The notes under the pieces: model-generated
Told to the model about the DNA's origin: nothing
Database searches by the model: none
Seen by the model: only the letters and a program-made list of their open reading frames with translations
Source: Deltaproteobacteria bacterium TL4
GTDB lineage: Bacteria; SAR324; NAC60-12
Reading direction: 5' to 3'
Assembly: GCA_051382335.1 (NCBI GenBank)
Contig: JBBCAX010000114.1
Coordinates: 1-64,000 of the forward strand
Length of the DNA stretch: 64,000 bases
Part shown: positions 1 to 47,591 of the stretch, in pieces
Layout: each line of letters opens with the position of its first letter
Position numbering within the stretch: position 1 is the first letter of the stretch
Position numbers and translations under genes: made by a program

Positions 1-506
1 AAATAATAACCTTGCATTAATTCATTCATAAAATAAAACCACTGATATTATTGAATAATTAAAACTAAAACCATGAATCAAATGTTCAAAGTCCAGATTA
101 AATATGACAAGATGACATTCGAAGCAAGGGGAATGATCGCTTAAATATTTATCCCCAGTGATTTTAACGTTCCAAAATGAAACACCATCAGAAAAATCAG
201 TGTGATAGCCAAAACCCTCAGCTTGAATAACACTTAGGAATCCATGTAACAAGGGGCTCTGCGGGAGAATGGATCGCCCGTGATGGGAAAGCTTTGAGAG
301 GCTCCCCTGGAGAACAAATCGTTTCAGCCATGACTCATCAGAGCGAAGTCCTTGTGGCTCAATCCAGAATGCAAGGGATCAAGAGCAGTGAAATCCTGAG
401 TTTGGTGGGAAAAATATGAAAAAAAATCTTGATAATTGCAGGGACTCCGAACCCTTTTTTATGAATATACTTTGTCAAGTTGGTTTTTTATGAGAAAGCC
501 GTGCTA

Positions 507-518
507 TACCTACCCGAT
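507..518 (+). mobile_element. Extreme 3' end remnant of a group IIC intron (TACCTACCCGAT), abutting an attC inverse core
   Basis: 507-519 is identical to 3003-3015, the end of the clear DV/DVI remnant. It is followed by TGGGC; removing the intron would restore R'' GCCCAAC on the minus strand. Confidence 0.5.
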
Positions 519-593
519 TGGGCCTCATTTATCTGAGGTTGGGTTGGTGACAATTCAAGCAATTCGTCCCTGATTCAGCTAGGACATGGTGGC

Positions 594-2747
594 TCATTTT
601 TTAGGGAATAACTGAACGATGGTTTTACCGATCTCATCCAGTTTTTCGATGGAATCCACAATAGACGGGTTTTTCAAGTCCCGTGTGGAACCGCCTGCGA
701 TGCCTGTCTGCAGGGGATAAACCAGAATAAAACTGTTGGCCTGAAAATACTTGTTTAAATAAGCGGGGATCTTGTCCATTTCGCCGTGATAAGAAACTTG
801 AGCTTTCCTGCTCAAAACAATGATCAGGTTGTCATCGATTCTCATGTCACGGGATAGAATTAAAAAATCCTCCCACTCCGTGAATTCGGAAAAGTCACAT
901 TCAATGGGATGCTTGGCATGGATGCTCTTAATGTATTTCAAGGTTTCCGGCGCGGCATAGAAAACCAGCGTGGCTCCTGTATTGCGGGCGATGTTCCAAA
1001 CCTTGATGAGCCAAAAGGGAAACCCGATTTCTTTTTCCGCTTTTTTCGGCACAATGATTAAATGCCGTTTAATTGTAGCCAGCGGTTGAGATGGTTTGTA
1101 GATCCATGTGGTCGTATCACATTTGGTGAGAATTCCCTCAATCAGATTGCCTAAAAAGGAGTCGGATATTCCCTTTTTTTGGTGAAGTCCCAGAATGAGG
1201 TCAGTAATTTTATGCTCCTTTACAACGCCGGAGATCCCGTTGACAATATTGAGATCGTAGCGGAGTAACTCATGCAGGTAAGTATCGGTGGCGGAAGCAG
1301 TGACGGCGGCCTTATTCAAGATTTTTTTCGCGGCCTTCTCCGCGTTCTCGTCAGCGGTATGGTGGTAGAGAAGGCTTAAGGCATATAATCCGCTTTTATT
1401 GTTACTGGACTTGACGGTGACGCTCAAGTTGATGAGTTCATCCACGGTTTCAGGATTACTGATGGGAATCAAAATGCGTTCCACATGATCACTGTCTTCC
1501 TCGTCGGATTCTGACGCTGCTGCTAAAGCAAGATTTTTAGCGCCTTTTTGCGCGGTGAATGAGGCCAGGGTACAGGTGATCAAAATCATGATCAGCGTGC
1601 CGTTTAAGATGCTTTCTCCCAGCAATCGGATTGGTTCTCCCGTTTGAGTTTCACCCACAATGACGTTATACCCCACCAGCACTGCGGCCAGGGTCGCCGC
1701 TGCCTGTGCGTTGCTCAATCCAAAAATCAATCGGCGCTCATCCGTTGAAAAGTGATAGGTCTTTTGCGTAGCCCACGCGGCCAGAAATTTAGCGGCTGTA
1801 GCAATGAGTGTCATGACTGCCGCGACTTTGACGGTTTCCAAATCCTTAAAAAACGCCCTGTAATCCATGAGCATTCCAACACCAAGGAGAAAAAACGGGA
1901 TAAAAATGGCATTACCCACAAAATCGATACGGTTCATTAAAGGAGAGGTTTGGGGAATGAGTCTGTTCATCGCCAATCCCGCAAGGAACGCTCCAATAAT
2001 CGCTTCAATTCCCGCCAGTTCCGCCAGAAACGCACCCAAAAAAAGGATCACCAACACAAATATGTATTGCGAAATGTTATCGTCATATCGCTTAAAGAAC
2101 CAACGGCCAATCAAGGGAAATAACAGAATTACGATCAATCCGAAAGCAAGAATAGATACGGAAAGTCTGAGCCAAAACTCAGCGTTTACTTCGCCTTTTG
2201 TCATTCCTACAATAACGGCAAGTATCAGCAGCGCCAGGGTATCCGTAATGATAGTTCCCCCTACCGCGACACTCACCGCTTTATTTTTTGTAAGGCCCAG
2301 TTTACTGACAATGGGATAGGCGATTAACGTATGGGAAGCGAACATGCTGGCCAGTAAAACTGAAGTCAGGATTGAAAATTCAAGAATATAAATACCAGCA
2401 AGTGTTCCCATCGTCATTGGAATGGTAAAAGTGTACAAACCAAACACTAAACTTTTCCGCCGGTTTTTCTTAAAATCAGCTAAATCAATTTCCAATCCCG
2501 CCAAAAACATAATGTAGAGCAGTCCGGCGGTTCCTGAAAGAATGATGCTGCTGTCCCGCACCATCAGATTCAATCCATGGGGACCAATAACAGCACCGGC
2601 CACAATCAATCCCAGCAAGTGAGGAATTTTTATTTTGTTTAACAGGATGGGCGCAAACAAGATGATCAGCAGGATGAGCAGAAATTTCAATACCGGATTG
2701 GTCAACGGCAAAGTCATCTCAAATAGATTTAGCAATGTCATGTTCAT
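594..2747 (-). CDS. Cation:proton antiporter (CPA2/Kef-type Na+/H+ exchanger) with C-terminal USP-like cytoplasmic domains
   Basis: About 12-13 hydrophobic segments, motifs GLLYIMFLAGLEIDL and IIGAFLAGL; soluble C-terminus beginning RILIPISNPET. Confidence 0.9.
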   Translation of the reverse strand: MNMTLLNLFEMTLPLTNPVLKFLLILLIILFAPILLNKIKIPHLLGLIVAGAVIGPHGLNLMVRDSSIILSGTAGLLYIMFLAGLEIDLADFKKNRRKSLVFGLYTFTIPMTMGTLAGIYILEFSILTSVLLASMFASHTLIAYPIVSKLGLTKNKAVSVAVGGTIITDTLALLILAVIVGMTKGEVNAEFWLRLSVSILAFGLIVILLFPLIGRWFFKRYDDNISQYIFVLVILFLGAFLAELAGIEAIIGAFLAGLAMNRLIPQTSPLMNRIDFVGNAIFIPFFLLGVGMLMDYRAFFKDLETVKVAAVMTLIATAAKFLAAWATQKTYHFSTDERRLIFGLSNAQAAATLAAVLVGYNVIVGETQTGEPIRLLGESILNGTLIMILITCTLASFTAQKGAKNLALAAASESDEEDSDHVERILIPISNPETVDELINLSVTVKSSNNKSGLYALSLLYHHTADENAEKAAKKILNKAAVTASATDTYLHELLRYDLNIVNGISGVVKEHKITDLILGLHQKKGISDSFLGNLIEGILTKCDTTTWIYKPSQPLATIKRHLIIVPKKAEKEIGFPFWLIKVWNIARNTGATLVFYAAPETLKYIKSIHAKHPIECDFSEFTEWEDFLILSRDMRIDDNLIIVLSRKAQVSYHGEMDKIPAYLNKYFQANSFILVYPLQTGIAGGSTRDLKNPSIVDSIEKLDEIGKTIVQLFPKK

Positions 2748-2783
2748 TTCGATTTTCTAGCGACCATGTGTTTTTAGATATGT

Positions 2784-2812
2784 GCCCAACGATGAGGAAA
2801 TCCGTCAGCAAA
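2784..2812 (-). other. Partial attC site (R' core GTTGGGC and right arm); left arm deleted
   Basis: Minus strand reads ...CGGATTTCCTCATCGTTGGGC, about 40 nt before the antiporter ATG. GTTGGGC is complementary to the (GCCCA)AC inverse core at 519-523. Confidence 0.55.
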
Positions 2813-2864
2813 CTGGAAACTCTCCAAGACTCTTTCAACCAATAGGGGACTGACCCCTCTCTAT

Positions 2865-3014
2865 CTCCAAAAACAGGGACTTGTTTCTATCAGATAACTT
2901 TGGATCAAGTGTCACTATCCCGCAACAGCGCGATGATTTCTACGAACCGCCGTAGGCGGAGCCGCATGTACGGTGGTGGGGGAGGTGACGGAGAAAAACC
3001 GCTACCTACCCGAT
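2865..3014 (+). mobile_element. Group IIC intron 3' fragment: C-terminal remnant of the intron-encoded RT/maturase plus domains V-VI
   Basis: GAACCGCCGTAGGCGGAGCCGCATGTACGGTGGTGGGGGAGG...ACCTACCCGAT (2944-3014) is a class C DV/DVI with CCG triad. 2865-2936 reads LQKQGLVSIR*LWIKCHYPATAR*, resembling an IEP C-terminus, with an internal stop. Confidence 0.85.
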
Positions 3015-3409
3015 TAGCTGATCGAAAACCAGGATTCGGCAATGAGAATTAATGTGGCAATTGTTATAGAAATTAGTAAAAGAATCCGATTTCGCTCACT
3101 TATCAATAGACTTGCAATGATTGCAATGAAGGTGATGATCGCTTCGATCAGACTACTCAATAAGTAAATTTCCCTAGTTTTGTAACGCCATCCAGAACCT
3201 TCATGCCCAAATGGGTAAAAACTATTGTCTTGGGATACATTAATGACTTCGGTAAAATTAAGAGCGCATATCAATGCTATCCATAGAAATAAGATTACAT
3301 CTAAGACTTTTATAGAAGTTCTCAGTATTTTACTTTTAAAATCATGTTTCGCCCAAAAGAGAGAAATCTCATGGTAAAAAGTGTCATTCTGGAAGTTAAA
3401 TCGATGCAT
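3014..3409 (-). CDS. Small membrane protein (about 3 TM), possible partner or immunity gene of the upstream Tlde1-like gene; start codon uncertain
   Basis: Hydrophobic helices in the C-terminal ~105 aa. It overlaps the end of 3322..4035, and its stop codon lies in the attC inverse core. Confidence 0.55.
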   Translation of the reverse strand: MHRFNFQNDTFYHEISLFWAKHDFKSKILRTSIKVLDVILFLWIALICALNFTEVINVSQDNSFYPFGHEGSGWRYKTREIYLLSSLIEAIITFIAIIASLLISERNRILLLISITIATLILIAESWFSIS

Positions 3410-4035
3410 CCAGCCGAACCGGGTGTATCGCCTCCATGAATAGAAAAACCACTTCTGCCTAAAGTGACGGTTTTCCTTTTGGGTATCAACCACACTCTGT
3501 TTTTTCCCCATGCGCTTTCTCCCCAAGGCCAATTGCCTTGACCAATAAGTTCAAGTAAATCCTGGATCCAGTCAGCGCCTCTCGGCGGTTTACTTTGATA
3601 CCGATCTTGCCTTACGTACCATTCCCCTTCTAGTATCGGTCCTTTGTCTTTCAAGGATTGATACGCTGACGAAGTATAACCATCTGCTCCTGAAGTCGCA
3701 GGCCAACAATCCACAGCTTTTTTGTTCTCCATCCAACACAATTCTCTTCCATTGAAAAGAAGGTAAGGCTCGTATAAATCGGCTAATGCCGAAAAATTAT
3801 TGGATTGAGTATCGTCAGGTCTGGATCTCAAATAAGGCTTCTCGTTTTGAGGTTGTATCACAACGGCATTTATTTCCCTTTGTTCAGCCAGAAAAATCGC
3901 TTTTTCCTTGGAAATCCAACCTGTCTCTTCAATGAGGAATTCTTCAATTTCTCCCGATCTGCCTCGTCTGGCTCCGATAATTTTCTTTGTCTCTTTCATT
4001 TCATTTTTTTCATGAAAGGTTGAAGATGAATTCAT
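3322..4035 (-). CDS. DUF3892-like N-terminal domain fused to a DUF2778/Tlde1-like (L,D-transpeptidase fold) domain
   Basis: N-terminal YLRSRPDDTQSNNFSAL is typical of DUF3892. C-terminal GRSGFSIHGGDTPGSAGCID carries the H...SxGC catalytic motif. Confidence 0.75.
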   Translation of the reverse strand: MNSSSTFHEKNEMKETKKIIGARRGRSGEIEEFLIEETGWISKEKAIFLAEQREINAVVIQPQNEKPYLRSRPDDTQSNNFSALADLYEPYLLFNGRELCWMENKKAVDCWPATSGADGYTSSAYQSLKDKGPILEGEWYVRQDRYQSKPPRGADWIQDLLELIGQGNWPWGESAWGKNRVWLIPKRKTVTLGRSGFSIHGGDTPGSAGCIDLTSRMTLFTMRFLSFGRNMILKVKY

Positions 4036-4036
4036 C

Positions 4037-4137
4037 AGCTAATGCTTAGCATGACTGGCATCCGTTTGAGATCGTCGCCTGTTGATCAGTCTTCGTGCGC
4101 CAAAAATGGCTGTTGTGTGTCCAGTCAATGCGATTGT
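4037..4137 (-). other. attC recombination site (degenerate R' ATTAGCT), interrupted at R'' by a group II intron
   Basis: Arms GCATGACTGG / CCAGTCAATGC pair with one extrahelical base. The site ends in TTGT immediately before the intron 5' end. Confidence 0.75.
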
Positions 4138-4453
4138 GTACGCCCAGCATGGGCGTGATCTGATGGGATGAAGTCCCCTATAGGAAAGCCACTGGCTTTC
4201 AATGCTATGGAACTGATCATGCTGCACTGGCGGGAAACCAGCCAGCAAACAGCGAACAAACTGTGTTCCTAAGGTAATGAGTACCATGAACTATTAGCGA
4301 AAGGCAAGGGCTAAACCGTGAGGGCTCGTCTGAAGGCTTGTCCTGAGCGCAGTCGAAGGGAAGCCCGGAGCAACGCTTCGACAGGCTCAGCGACCAATTG
4401 ACAAGCCGACGGGCAGAAACCGCGTAGAAGGCTCACTTCCCTGGGATGAGTTA
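4138..4453 (+). mobile_element. Group IIC (attC-targeting) intron 5' fragment, domain I, truncated by a MITE
   Basis: Starts GTACGCCCAGCATGGGCGTG and contains GCAAGGG..CCGTG, CTGAAGG..GAAGC and GGGATGAGTT, as in class C DI. Highly similar to 46888-47180. Confidence 0.85.
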
Positions 4454-4554
4454 TAGTGTTTCAGAAAAGTATTTTGGGCTGGGAGCGCAGGCGTCCCGCC
4501 TGCTTTTGCGGGCAGAATGCCCGCGTTCCCAGGAAAGACTTATCTGAAAGTCTA
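4454..4554. repeat. MITE-like element family C (~100 bp) with internal GGGAGCG-type REP-like hairpin
   Basis: Ends TAGTGTTTCAGAAAAGT / ACTTATCTGAAAGTCTA; related copies at 18096, 33852 and 40299. Confidence 0.75.
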
Positions 4555-4753
4555 GGCACTGGTTCCGTTGAGTTCATAAAACCTTCTCCATGCGTAATGT
4601 TCTGGTAACTCTGCGTGCAAAGTCCGCCACACCGTAAGCGATATTCCGAACACCGGGTTTGAGCATGAAGCCTCCTGTCTTTCTTTTCTTGCCGCGTCGA
4701 ACCCACCCTTGATGAGGGTTCCAAATTACCAAACAGATTGAGAGAAAACGTAC

Positions 4754-5908
4754 TTACCCCTCATTTCCGATCTTGGCTTTAATGATTGAAAGGTGATGTC
4801 GATTTTTTGGGGACAGATCGTTTACTAAATCTCCCATGCCGTCAGCAACTCCAATGATCCGGGAGGGATTGCGGTAATTGTCAACGACGACATCATCCAG
4901 GAGTCCCATGTATCCACCGGATACCACAAAAACACCGGCTTCAATTTCTCGTCGGCCCATCTGATTAAACATGACCGCATGATTCTTTTGCATCGTGGCA
5001 ATGAGGCCATCGATGGCAGAGGAGATGTCACATCGAATGATGTTGATTTTTGCTTGAACCGCTTTTTCGATAGCGTCTTTAAATACGCTGCCTTTACCCA
5101 CATCTACAACAAGGCCCTCAGGTTTCATACTTTGAATCATTTCCCAGTTGATGGCGGGGACTCCATTCGTACATCCGATGAGCGCGTCACAATACAAGGC
5201 AGCCTGTAAGGCATCCTGATTATAATGGGCAATGGCCATGGTGGATTGGGGTTTCGCAATATTAATAACATCGGCCATCAGCATGCCTCGGGCCATATCA
5301 CGACGGACTAATTCCACATGACAGCCACATTCAACGAGTTTCAGCGCCAATTTGAAACCAATGTTTCCACCCCCTATGATCGCAATTCTTTTTTCGTTCA
5401 GAAGGTGGAACCAACTCGACAGGAAATGCCATACGGATTCAACGGTCATATCGTTAGGCTTGAACTCTCGAAATTGGCTTATTTTAACATGGAGCGCACA
5501 TGCGGCACTCAAATTTCCCATCTCCACATGAATCCTTGCCTTTGCCTTTTCAGAGGAAGGTTCCATGTTGAAATAGGTTAATACCTGATTATCTATACCA
5601 AGACTGATGCCTATTTTTTTCTCTGCATCCATGAGAACCTGGTCCACAATCCCGTCAATTCGCCGACAAAGCAAAATAGCCTGCGTCTGTGAAAAAACGA
5701 TGCTGCCTCCAATAAAACTGTGCGTAATGCGTCTCAGTGGCGTCAGAAAAGGATGGCCGTTCTCTCGGATTTTTGCCGTGGTGCTGATTGTAAAGATAGA
5801 TAAAGCGCCTGCCCTTTGAGCTTCCGCACGAAGTTCCCGAGCTAAATGTTCAGCGTCTTTCAGCCAATTTTCTAAATATTCGATGCTTTCCCGCATGTTC
5901 CCATTCAT
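4754..5908 (-). CDS. NAD(P)-binding Rossmann-fold protein of unknown function, last gene of the polysaccharide cluster
   Basis: IAIIGGGNIG motif and VVDVGKG; co-oriented with the glycan genes. Confidence 0.65.
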   Translation of the reverse strand: MNGNMRESIEYLENWLKDAEHLARELRAEAQRAGALSIFTISTTAKIRENGHPFLTPLRRITHSFIGGSIVFSQTQAILLCRRIDGIVDQVLMDAEKKIGISLGIDNQVLTYFNMEPSSEKAKARIHVEMGNLSAACALHVKISQFREFKPNDMTVESVWHFLSSWFHLLNEKRIAIIGGGNIGFKLALKLVECGCHVELVRRDMARGMLMADVINIAKPQSTMAIAHYNQDALQAALYCDALIGCTNGVPAINWEMIQSMKPEGLVVDVGKGSVFKDAIEKAVQAKINIIRCDISSAIDGLIATMQKNHAVMFNQMGRREIEAGVFVVSGGYMGLLDDVVVDNYRNPSRIIGVADGMGDLVNDLSPKNRHHLSIIKAKIGNEG

Positions 5909-5945
5909 GTTCGTGGTTTTGAATTTTCAACGTATCCTGGCCCGA

Positions 5946-7631
5946 TTATTCATCGTCCATGCTGCGATACTTCTTTTCAAAAATTTGTTGCAACCATAAT
6001 TCAAAAGCCACATAGCGTCCCAGTGCTTCCGCGTAATTATGACCTTGAAGATGTTTTTGCCAAAGCGTCAAGACCGCTTGTTTTGAAAGGAATTCACCGT
6101 AAAGCGCTTTAGGATTTTTCAGTACTTGCTGAAAAAAGGAACCAATCGGCTCTTGCCTCATCCAGCGGGCATAAGCGGCATACTCGCTATCATCCTGAAA
6201 GTGGTTTCCCAAAAAGGGAAGATCGCGAAGGAGCTTTCCCCTGACTTTTCTGACAAACAACGTTATTTGTTGTTGGGGTCTATACGCGCTCACGGGGAGT
6301 CCGGTATGCTGCCAGGGAATTGATTGGAAATAGTCAGGAAACCTGCGCAGTAACATCTGATGATAAATGTAAGAATTTTGACGCAACCGGGGAGGTATCG
6401 ACAAAATGAATTCAAACAATTCATTTTCAAAAAAGGGGAGTCGGCTATGCACACGAGACTGACACAAACGAACACCGTAAGTCACAAAACGCCTTCCACG
6501 ATGCGTTATTTTTTCGGTCATCGACCAACGGGGGTCGTTTAAATAGCTCCCGCCTAAAATCGCGTCGCCTAAAAACCCATCCAGTAGAATACGACAATGG
6601 GTACGCATCAGGGGGACTAAGCTCAAAATATGCATGTGGATTATATTTTTATGGCCTTCCGTTAACCAAACACCGGTTTGCCAACGTTGAATCCATGAGA
6701 ATTGATCTAACTCCAGCACATGATGTTCCGTGTTGCCCAGCGACGCCACTTGTTTAGCGATCTCGATATCCTCACAGCCGACTTTCCCGAAGGTGAAGGC
6801 TGGAATCGCTGTCGCTCTTGGGGAAAGTGCCGCCAAGAGGGCTCTTGAATCCAGGCCTCCGCTTAAAGCGATTCCGGTTGGACCCTGCTCCATTATTTTT
6901 ACGCTTTGGACAAAAAGTCGGCCTAATTCTTCAATAATTTCATCTTCGTTTAAATGGGCGCCTTTTTGAGGGAGCATGTCCCAATTCCAATAAACATGAA
7001 TTGCCTGAGTTTGAGTTTCCAGATCCCATTTAAGGACACTGCCAGACGGCAGCAACGTCACATGCTCAAACCAGGTGCGGTTGCCCAACAGATAACCGGT
7101 ATCAAAAAACTCCACCAGGGCACCTCGGCTGATTTGGGGCGTATATCCAGGAAATTCCAAAAGAGCTTTGATTTCGCTTGTCCAAATCAAATGCCGTTGG
7201 TGCACGGTCCAATGGAGGTGACGCAACCCATAACGATCCGTCAGCAAAAACACTTGCTTGCGCCTTGAGTCATAAATCACGGCGGCAAAAATACCATTGA
7301 TTTGTTTTAAAAATTCAAGGGAGGGGTCCCTTCGGATTAACTGCGCCAATAAAACGGGGTCTCTGTTGCCTGAGACCTGATAAGTGCGTTGCAATTCTGT
7401 CTGATTATAAAATTCACCATCTAACCAAACGGCCAGTCCTTCCGCTTCATAAGGTTGCGGCTCCAGTTGTATGGTATCCGTATGGACTCGTGTCGCCGCA
7501 ATTTGAGTGTCATGAAAAAGAGGATCCTGGACATAAAAGGGATAATGCGTCATTAACTGACTCATGCGCTCCAGGACCTCGGCAGATTTTGACAAAGCTG
7601 GAGTAAGGGTAAAACCGACAAGTCCGGGCAT
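5946..7631 (-). CDS. Asparagine synthase-like amidotransferase/ATP pyrophosphatase (glycan modification)
   Basis: DGEFYN, TDRYGLR, LSGGLDSR and LPFFENEL motifs. The N-terminus is MPG rather than MCG. Confidence 0.85.
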   Translation of the reverse strand: MPGLVGFTLTPALSKSAEVLERMSQLMTHYPFYVQDPLFHDTQIAATRVHTDTIQLEPQPYEAEGLAVWLDGEFYNQTELQRTYQVSGNRDPVLLAQLIRRDPSLEFLKQINGIFAAVIYDSRRKQVFLLTDRYGLRHLHWTVHQRHLIWTSEIKALLEFPGYTPQISRGALVEFFDTGYLLGNRTWFEHVTLLPSGSVLKWDLETQTQAIHVYWNWDMLPQKGAHLNEDEIIEELGRLFVQSVKIMEQGPTGIALSGGLDSRALLAALSPRATAIPAFTFGKVGCEDIEIAKQVASLGNTEHHVLELDQFSWIQRWQTGVWLTEGHKNIIHMHILSLVPLMRTHCRILLDGFLGDAILGGSYLNDPRWSMTEKITHRGRRFVTYGVRLCQSRVHSRLPFFENELFEFILSIPPRLRQNSYIYHQMLLRRFPDYFQSIPWQHTGLPVSAYRPQQQITLFVRKVRGKLLRDLPFLGNHFQDDSEYAAYARWMRQEPIGSFFQQVLKNPKALYGEFLSKQAVLTLWQKHLQGHNYAEALGRYVAFELWLQQIFEKKYRSMDDE

Positions 7632-33485: not shown

Positions 33486-33659
33486 GCCCAGAGCCCCTCC
33501 CCTATCCCAAGGTGGTTGTTCGGAAAGAGAAGGTGACTTTGTAGTGAGATAACTAGCACAAAGGCTCAAATACGCAATAAGTAACTTAAATAATGAACGT
33601 TCCAGAGTGATTTAATTGCTTGACTTCCCTCTGATCCAATGCGATAACGTGGAACGTCA

Positions 33660-33740
33660 CTAACGGCACGGGGTGCCCTGCAGGCTGAGAACAAACCCGC
33701 TATTACCTGAACTGGATAATGCCAGCGTAGGAATTGTCGA
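33660..33740 (+). promoter_or_regulatory. TPP riboswitch
   Basis: GGGGTGCC...CTGAGA...ACCC...ACCTGAACTGGATAATGCCAGCGTAGGAA, upstream of the thi operon. Confidence 0.93.
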
Positions 33741-33851
33741 ATCGCATAGGAAATCGTCAAGACCCTTTCCCTTTATTGTCCATTCGCCGAACATCCCTTA
33801 GCTCTAATAATCCGGTTTTTCAAACGGTTAGAAATAATCTTCGTTCAGGTA

Positions 33852-46807: not shown

Positions 46808-46887
46808 GCATAACGTTGAGTTCAGCCTTGCTTTGGAGCAGAACGAGGTACGAGTAGCGCGGAAAAGCATAGGCCGAAGCGCCTTGT
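46808..46887 (-). other. attC site (R' GTTATGC) interrupted at R'' by a group II intron
   Basis: Minus strand ACAAGGCGCTTCGGCCTATGCTTT...AAAGCAAGGCTGAACTCAACGTTATGC; TTGT precedes the intron on the + strand. Confidence 0.8.
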
Positions 46888-47474
46888 GTACGTCCAGCAT
46901 GGGCGTGATCTGATGGGGTGAAAGTCCCCTATAGGAAAGCCACTGGCTTTCAATGCTATGGAACCGATTATGCGGCACTGGCGGGAAACCAGCCAGCAAA
47001 CAGCGAACAAACCGTGTTCTTAAGGCAATGAGTACCATGAACTATTAGCGAAAGGCAAGGGCGAAACCGTGAGGGCTCGTCTGAAGGCTTGTCCTGAGCG
47101 CAGTCGAAGGGAAGCCCGGAGCAAAATGACGAGCCGACGGACAGAAATCGCGTAGAAGGCTCACTTCCCTGGGATGCGTTAGCACAACATAATGAAATCC
47201 TGTGCTTGGGGGATAGGGTAAACGCGGCGGCAGTGTCATGAAAGATCACGTTCTTATCTGGGGAGATCTGTCCAGCGCGCGGTCTGGTTCTTCAAAGAAG
47301 ACTGGAAGACGGAAACGGAGCACTCCCCTTGTTTTGGAAAATCACTCAGCATCTCATGGAGTAATTCATGAGATGACTGGACAGAAGTCAGCCGAAGCCA
47401 TAGGTGCCAAAGGCCTGCCGTAAGGGGCAGGACAGGGTGAAGGGCTGAACGTAGAAAGGAATGCTATGACCTTG
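46888..47474 (+). mobile_element. Group IIC-attC intron, domains I-III and start of the IEP ORF; remainder lost
   Basis: GTACGTCCAGCATGGGCG start, TTCTTATCTGGGGAGATCTG, CAGAAGTCAGCCGAAGCCATAG and GAAGGGCTGAAC, then AGAAAGGA-N5-ATG at 47466. Confidence 0.88.
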
Positions 47475-47591
47475 ATTTGAGTCTAACCCAGACTGTGGAG
47501 TGCCAAAGCTTGCTTTGGCCAAATCCAAAGAAAGGCCTTCGTCTTTATGGCCAAAGCAAGCTTTGGCACTCCTGAAACAGCGTTGTTTAAA
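47475..47591. repeat. Partial MITE family A (hairpin core) truncating the intron
   Basis: Matches 17902-18018. Confidence 0.8.

Follow-up and report, generated by a model that had tools for sequence, protein, structure and literature searches.

Results

Organization of the array

The window analysed here comprises positions 1–64000 (G000:C114:1-64000) of a 67-kb contig, C114, of Deltaproteobacteria bacterium TL4, the source genome G000, whose draft assembly consists of 445 contigs. At its left end, 506 bp from the end of the contig, lies an array of two gene cassettes bounded by three pieces of group IIC-attC introns, namely a 5′ piece, a 3′ piece and a 12-nt tip. The array is quite likely a two-cassette integron fragment whose attC sites were separately invaded by one IIC-attC intron family and then decayed. 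Its features are as follows.

229–503, plus strand: internally deleted insertion sequence (IS) of the ISAs1 family, with 23 genome matches reaching the same end; a longer copy on contig C56 corresponds to NF033564
507–518, plus strand: intron 1, 12-nt 3′ tip, the end of domain VI (DVI)
519–2789, minus strand: cassette B, with its core at 2790/2789 and inverse core at 519–523
594–2747, minus strand: cation/H+ antiporter of 717 aa with a weak Usp domain, in cassette B
2784–2813, plus strand: R′ box and 23-nt stub, the remainder of the attC2 body
2814–3014, plus strand: intron 2, 3′ piece, with the C-terminus of the intron-encoded protein (IEP) interrupted by a premature stop, domain V (DV) and DVI
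3014–3412, minus strand: small hydrophobic membrane open reading frame (ORF), start uncertain, ending at the inverse core of cassette A
3015–4042, minus strand: cassette A, whose ends match over 8 nt
3322–4035, minus strand: DUF3892-Tlde1 fusion protein of 225–237 aa, in cassette A
4037–4137, plus strand: attC3 bottom strand, the body of a lost cassette, with an L box carrying an extrahelical base, core AAT and a TTGT end
4138–4451, plus strand: intron 3, 5′ piece, domain I with a repeat insertion, stopping just before the loop of exon-binding site 1 (EBS1)
4452–4554, no strand assigned: palindromic miniature inverted-repeat transposable element (MITE) of 103 bp, inserted at TA, with 55 genome matches

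Re-reading of the sequence located all three intron junctions proposed in a sequence-only reading of this DNA, at 4137/4138 (TTGT/GTACGCC), 3014/3015 (CCCGAT/TAG) and 518/519 (CCCGAT/TGG). As expected for IIC-attC introns, the pieces lie in the attC bottom strand, opposite the cassette genes; TTGT is found at 4134–4137 and both 3′ exons start with T, the 5′ piece in the window itself having no EBS1. An active element would have complete domains I to VI and an intact IEP; the window holds pieces only. The Rfam search suggested by the earlier reading detected DV-DVI at 2945–3014 with the Intron_gpII model (RF00029; 42.5 bits, cut-off 40), the only Rfam match in window 1–6000. The D1D4 models, also suggested there, gave no match at 4138–4451, a segment that aligns with domain I of the intron family. 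The 3′ piece, of which 2814–2936 corresponds to the truncated IEP C-terminus, is 95% identical to a 1985-nt copy on C217. The 12-nt tip at 507–518 is a real intron end and not a chance match: its 12-mer has 33 exact copies in the genome where 0.7 are expected, and 32 of these lie at intron ends found by BLAST.

The truncation points coincide with the ends of a multicopy MITE and a multicopy IS. No intron sequence was found beyond the MITE at 4452–4554, and an intron copy on C398 carries a MITE at the same TA without a deletion. The right end of the ISAs1 element adjoins the intron tip, with 3 nt between them (504–506) that have no explanation. The erosion is thus real and, as judged from the boundaries, has three identifiable agents, the MITE, a deletion and ISAs1, one visible agent per cut, which supports the earlier proposal of three invasions followed by erosion. 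A small palindromic repeat at 4334–4400, inside intron domain I, occurs in whole or in part in five other copies. Survival of the 5′ piece as an outward promoter found no support, since 4138–4451 contains no consensus site (8 found against 6.9 expected in 400–4800).

Only one attC body remains intact. The attC3 site (4037–4137) has an L′/L″ stem with an extrahelical base, spacers of 5–6 nt and a size within the 57–142 nt range, and with an appended inverse core it folds as a full attC hairpin. Its core, AAT, departs from the AAC of most family copies and from the AAC/GTT triplet conserved in attC sites (PMC2727003). Of attC2 there remain the R′ box and the 23-nt stub, which is joined directly to the IEP C-terminus and for which no relative was found, and of attC1 only the inverse core, the body being gone. 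The earlier statement that every attC site carries an intron remnant stands for the junctions, but the sites amount to one intact body with a mutated core, one stub and one inverse core. A cluster of attC sites lacking an integron integrase (CALIN) is recognized by at least two recognizable attC sites; the array has no neighbouring intI on its contig and fewer than two such sites.

Integrases and cassette mobility

The genome encodes two full integron integrase (IntI) genes, on C186 and C413, and none was found on the 67-kb contig, so that "integrase-less" describes this contig only. An attC family of 29 copies with GAGT, found on C31, C40, C246, C265, C283 and others, is never occupied by an intron. 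The cassettes that it flanks are paralogous and similar to the first one beside the C186 integrase, a cassette common to small contigs. Because that first cassette is shared with the contigs of the GAGT family, this family likely forms the resident array.

Cassettes A and B are predicted to be immobile because attC2 lacks L″ and the loop, attC1 lacks its body and the core of attC3 is mutated. The freezing of the cassettes, previously credited to the introns, is better explained by the deletions and the AAT core, which suffice to account for it. An intron alone may not immobilize a cassette; in 2002 Centron and Roy are said to have observed IntI1 excising an intron-bearing cassette.

Cassette contents and ends

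The best relatives of the antiporter are in Bacteroidota, at no more than 81% identity. In two of them (L057 and L072) cassette borders are apparent by eye, with an inverse core right after the stop codon, and a third, from a Cellulophaga metagenome-assembled genome (L077), carries an independent 5′-truncated IIC intron at its inverse core (L077:2230-2360); many other relatives have no cassette borders. The small hydrophobic ORF of cassette A (3014–3412) has no family match, and an immunity role for it is a guess.

Matched ends had been described for both units. They hold for cassette A, over 8 nt, and are weak for cassette B, where 5 nt match and TGGGC is the commonest 3′ exon (9/40). Across the genome, the ends of 16 intron-bounded units agree at 3.94 of 6 bases, close to the 4.41 of 27 units after free attC sites and against 2.59 after shuffling (0/5000 shuffles). 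Because intron-bounded units keep matched ends, they are pre-formed cassettes, evidence against a fresh capture of genes; the test is compatible with later shuffling of pre-formed cassettes between introns. Introns occupy both ends of 9 of the 16 units, a few of which may hide undetected attC sites. Comparison of the same cassette on C362 and C196 as a probe of attC swapping was uninformative, the genes being 69–85% alike.

Genome-wide target choice

BLAST identified 43 intron 5′ ends in the genome and, besides the 12-nt tip, 40 3′ ends. Upstream of the 5′ ends lie TTGT (26), TTGG (5), TTG (4), another intron 3′ end (4), TCTT (1) or eroded sequence (3), in a genome where TTGTT occurs 25,921 times. 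Nine 5′ junctions have TTGG or TTG (C3, C26, C34, C345, C441, C7, C9, C43 and C415) and three 3′ exons start with TT, possibly reflecting imprecise or shifted insertion.

A census that pooled the matches by model, rule and homology yielded 85 attC sites, 34 occupied and 51 free; 17 "unclear" rows, mostly partial duplicates, stand outside it, except for C287, which was reclassed as occupied. An earlier estimate of about 80% occupancy, from rule-based attC detectors, was rejected in favour of 34/85 when R1, our own covariance model trained on 12 free attC sites, revealed many additional free ones. Introns occupied 34 of 48 TTG(T/G)-type sites and none of 37 others (27 GAGT, 7 TGGT and three singles). 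By family, occupancy was 16/21 versus 0/6 (p=0.0016); related sites are not independent. Among sites found by the free-attC model only, 17/31 TTG-type sites were occupied versus 0/30 others, or 17/31 versus 0/8 (p=0.006) without the large GAGT family. In 13 of 15 family copies the EBS1 (ID3) loop contains ACAA, which is complementary to TTGT. EBS1-loop variants on C138, C362, C161 and C125 mismatch their own 5′ exon where the two are linked, and a tie between loop variants and junction variants was dropped, the few linked copies giving no match.

On contigs longer than 10 kb, 8 of 14 attC sites are occupied. At the genome's rate, three occupied sites in a row have a probability of 0.18–0.36, so the run in the window is unremarkable.

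Intron forms and exchange between copies

The introns in this genome include a 1985-nt IEP-coding form (C217), internally deleted copies, tandems and a 707-nt ORF-less form (C362) that has all Rfam domains. The 40 3′ ends divide into 14 ORF-less, 18 IEP-type and 8 other. In a tree that lacked a known terminator-type IIC outgroup, the main-family IEPs, those of C217 and C197 among them, and the C6 IEP all fell in one clade with class 1 integron IEPs (support 100/99). Tandem introns, with a 3′ end joined directly to the next 5′ end (C217:475/476, C177:102/103, C152 and C400), would fit a second insertion at the same attC junction.

Intron copies are mosaic: a long DII/DIII type occurs with both IEP and ORF-less domain IV (four contigs), as does a domain I insertion, indicating that exchange between copies occurs.

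Related genomes and metagenomes

The same 5′ junction occurs in about 1700 metagenome stretches. We retrieved 119 of them; 1 kb or more of upstream sequence was present in 63, among which 14 showed another intron 3′ end no more than 3 kb away, the junction being clean in 12; these neighbours were found with a hidden Markov model, a stricter DV pattern having given none. Seven of 22 complete metagenome introns are 702–779 nt long, carry no trace of an IEP and are 67–92% alike, in a sample where short introns assemble more easily. One stretch (L110:645-937) has, on the cassette strand and right beside the attC site of an ORF-less intron, a fragment of another group II intron (RF02005).

Within the phylum, 7 of 88 genomes have the junction, with 20 exact matches in G000, 9 in G015 and 1–3 in the others. 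In G015, four introns measure about 700 nt, two are 1953 nt and one 512 nt long, and two more are of undefined length; the ORF-less attC-targeting form is common in G000, G015 and G009. No IntI was found in G015, which is 91% complete. The comparison with G015 is weak: its 26 scattered attC model hits gave 2/12 TTGT sites occupied, 0/10 others and 4 unclear, and the junction search required TTGT. Neighbouring occupied sites are thus recurrent, with G000 extreme among the genomes searched.

Other features of the window

Capsule-type chromosomal genes lie to the right of the MITE; no syntenic empty site for the right-flank gene was found among 30 relatives. At 46808–47477, directly upstream of a type I restriction-modification hsdM gene, a second attC site is followed by a 590-nt 5′ intron piece with a TTGT junction, cut by another palindromic repeat; no inverse core was found downstream of it. 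A thiamine pyrophosphate riboswitch lies at 33659–33751, upstream of thiamine genes.

Discussion

Origin of the array and alternative explanations

We propose that the union of A and B by IntI most likely preceded intron invasion, and that one IIC-attC family likely retrohomed separately into three attC positions. The intron would recognize the folded attC bottom strand, with the ACAA of the EBS1 loop pairing to TTGT in the R″ spacer, a pairing that would explain why occupancy is confined to TTG(T/G)-type sites. Copies with and without an IEP would have spread together, the ORF-less form presumably being mobilized in trans, and the introns were later likely cut by ISAs1 insertion and by two deletions, one MITE-adjacent and one internal. 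The locus is therefore likely a decayed side product of an intron invasion across the genome and not a new route of array building.

Several observations weigh against this proposal. The attC2 and attC1 sites cannot be rebuilt, and TTGT is visible at one of the three sites only. The attC3 fold shows no unusual stability (z = -0.71), and R1, which misses the family of attC3, does not detect attC3 itself. The census scored 150 of 3146 candidates, so that free sites are perhaps undercounted, and a formal end-match test among relatives of cassette B gave 2 of 71, both spurious. In addition, domain X carries a frameshift in the three longest IEPs of the main family (C217, C197 and C309), so that outside diverged introns (C6, perhaps C177) the assembly lacks the mobilizing enzyme. 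The search for a full-length IEP advised by the sequence-only reading succeeded in the diverged C6 intron, whose intact 443-aa IEP is 66% identical to those of class 1 integron plasmids.

The same sequence-only reading offered intron-intron recombination as an alternative builder of the array. Homologous recombination between introns in different attC sites would then have united A and B without IntI, and such portable homology would shuffle cassettes and seed orphan arrays. The mosaicism across domain IV types and the domain I insertion, the units with introns at both ends, the occupancy on longer contigs and the nine junctions of G015, where no IntI was found, are in keeping with this idea. 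Yet none of the junctions in the window calls for it, the genome has two IntI genes, three occupied sites in a row are expected often enough by chance, and the mosaics may equally stem from template switching by reverse transcriptase (RT) or from repeat assembly. Although the copies are mosaic, intron-bounded units keep matched cassette ends; recombination as the builder is thus not shown, and we regard it as improbable. We think it highly improbable that the array represents a stage in the de novo formation of a cassette under the model of Leon and Roy (summarized in PMC3053210 and PMC7923331), in which the intron after the antiporter gene would have recombined with an attC-borne intron and captured a gene of chromosomal type. 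The antiporter is large, its stop codon lies 75 nt from the intron junction and many of its relatives lack cassette borders, which speaks for this model, but L057 and L072 are already cassette-like by eye, L077 has its own IIC piece at the inverse core and matched ends are retained by intron-bounded units. The least probable explanation is misassembly: the truncated pieces would be artefacts of a draft genome rich in repeats, many of whose 445 contigs break inside these introns; the junction partners in the window lie inside a 67-kb contig and share at most 2–3 nt, too short for repeat collapse.

Separate invasion of an IntI-joined array thus remains the reading we prefer. A broader scenario, which we consider possible although unlikely, is an arms race in which a mostly non-autonomous IIC-attC swarm saturates TTGT sites, recombines and reshuffles cassettes without IntI, and the resident attC family escapes through GAGT or TGGT at the paired bases. 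If true, this would explain why most integrons contain few introns.

Relation to known systems and significance

The TTGT/T target on the attC bottom strand is established (PMC7923331, PMC3001079), and attC insertion, truncation, CALIN location and tandem copies are already known (PMC3001079, PMC7923331, PMC9229058), tandem introns being listed for Shewanella putrefaciens (PMC3001079). The introns described here resemble S.ma.I2-type IIC-attC introns (Leon et al. 2010, PMC3001079) in their bottom-strand TTGT/T insertion opposite cassette genes, and share the GTACGCCC start with introns in class 1 integron plasmids, whose IEPs group with theirs in the tree described above. In contrast to the S.ma.I2 type, 34/85 attC sites are occupied, 14/40 3′ ends are ORF-less and the 5′ piece in the window has no outward promoter consensus. 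The CALIN introns UHB.F1 and H.ha.F1/F2 (Sonbol and Siam 2021, PMC7923331) are likewise 5′-truncated and located in integrase-less clusters, with two in one cluster; that two-intron cluster is of class IIB, whereas here three IIC-attC pieces of a genome-expanded family occupy consecutive sites. Protein-less ribozymes beside IEP-coding relatives are known among ORF-less bacterial group II introns (PMC4424553, PMC8919778), which have been called rare (Zimmerly and Semper 2015, PMC4424553). The form described here differs in being a conserved, attC-targeting intron of 700–780 nt that makes up 7/22 complete metagenome introns; the main text of Miura 2022 (PMC8919778) does not mention attC. Nowhere in the open literature did we find genome-wide saturation described, or a four-base rule that holds all-or-none over natural attC families, or this attC-targeting lineage without an ORF, parts of which subscription papers and supplements may cover.

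The locus itself is a dense, ordinary relic in a moderately interesting genome context. The scarcity of introns in integrons has been called "perplexing" (PMC3001079), and this genome serves as a natural experiment on why IIC-attC introns are so scarce there, with occupancy all-or-none by four bases of the R″ spacer and the protein-less form contributing a large share of the intron copies. RT-based surveys and attC finders miss such sites, a warning for both, and the genome makes it possible to test target choice and the shuffling of cassettes by introns directly at the bench.

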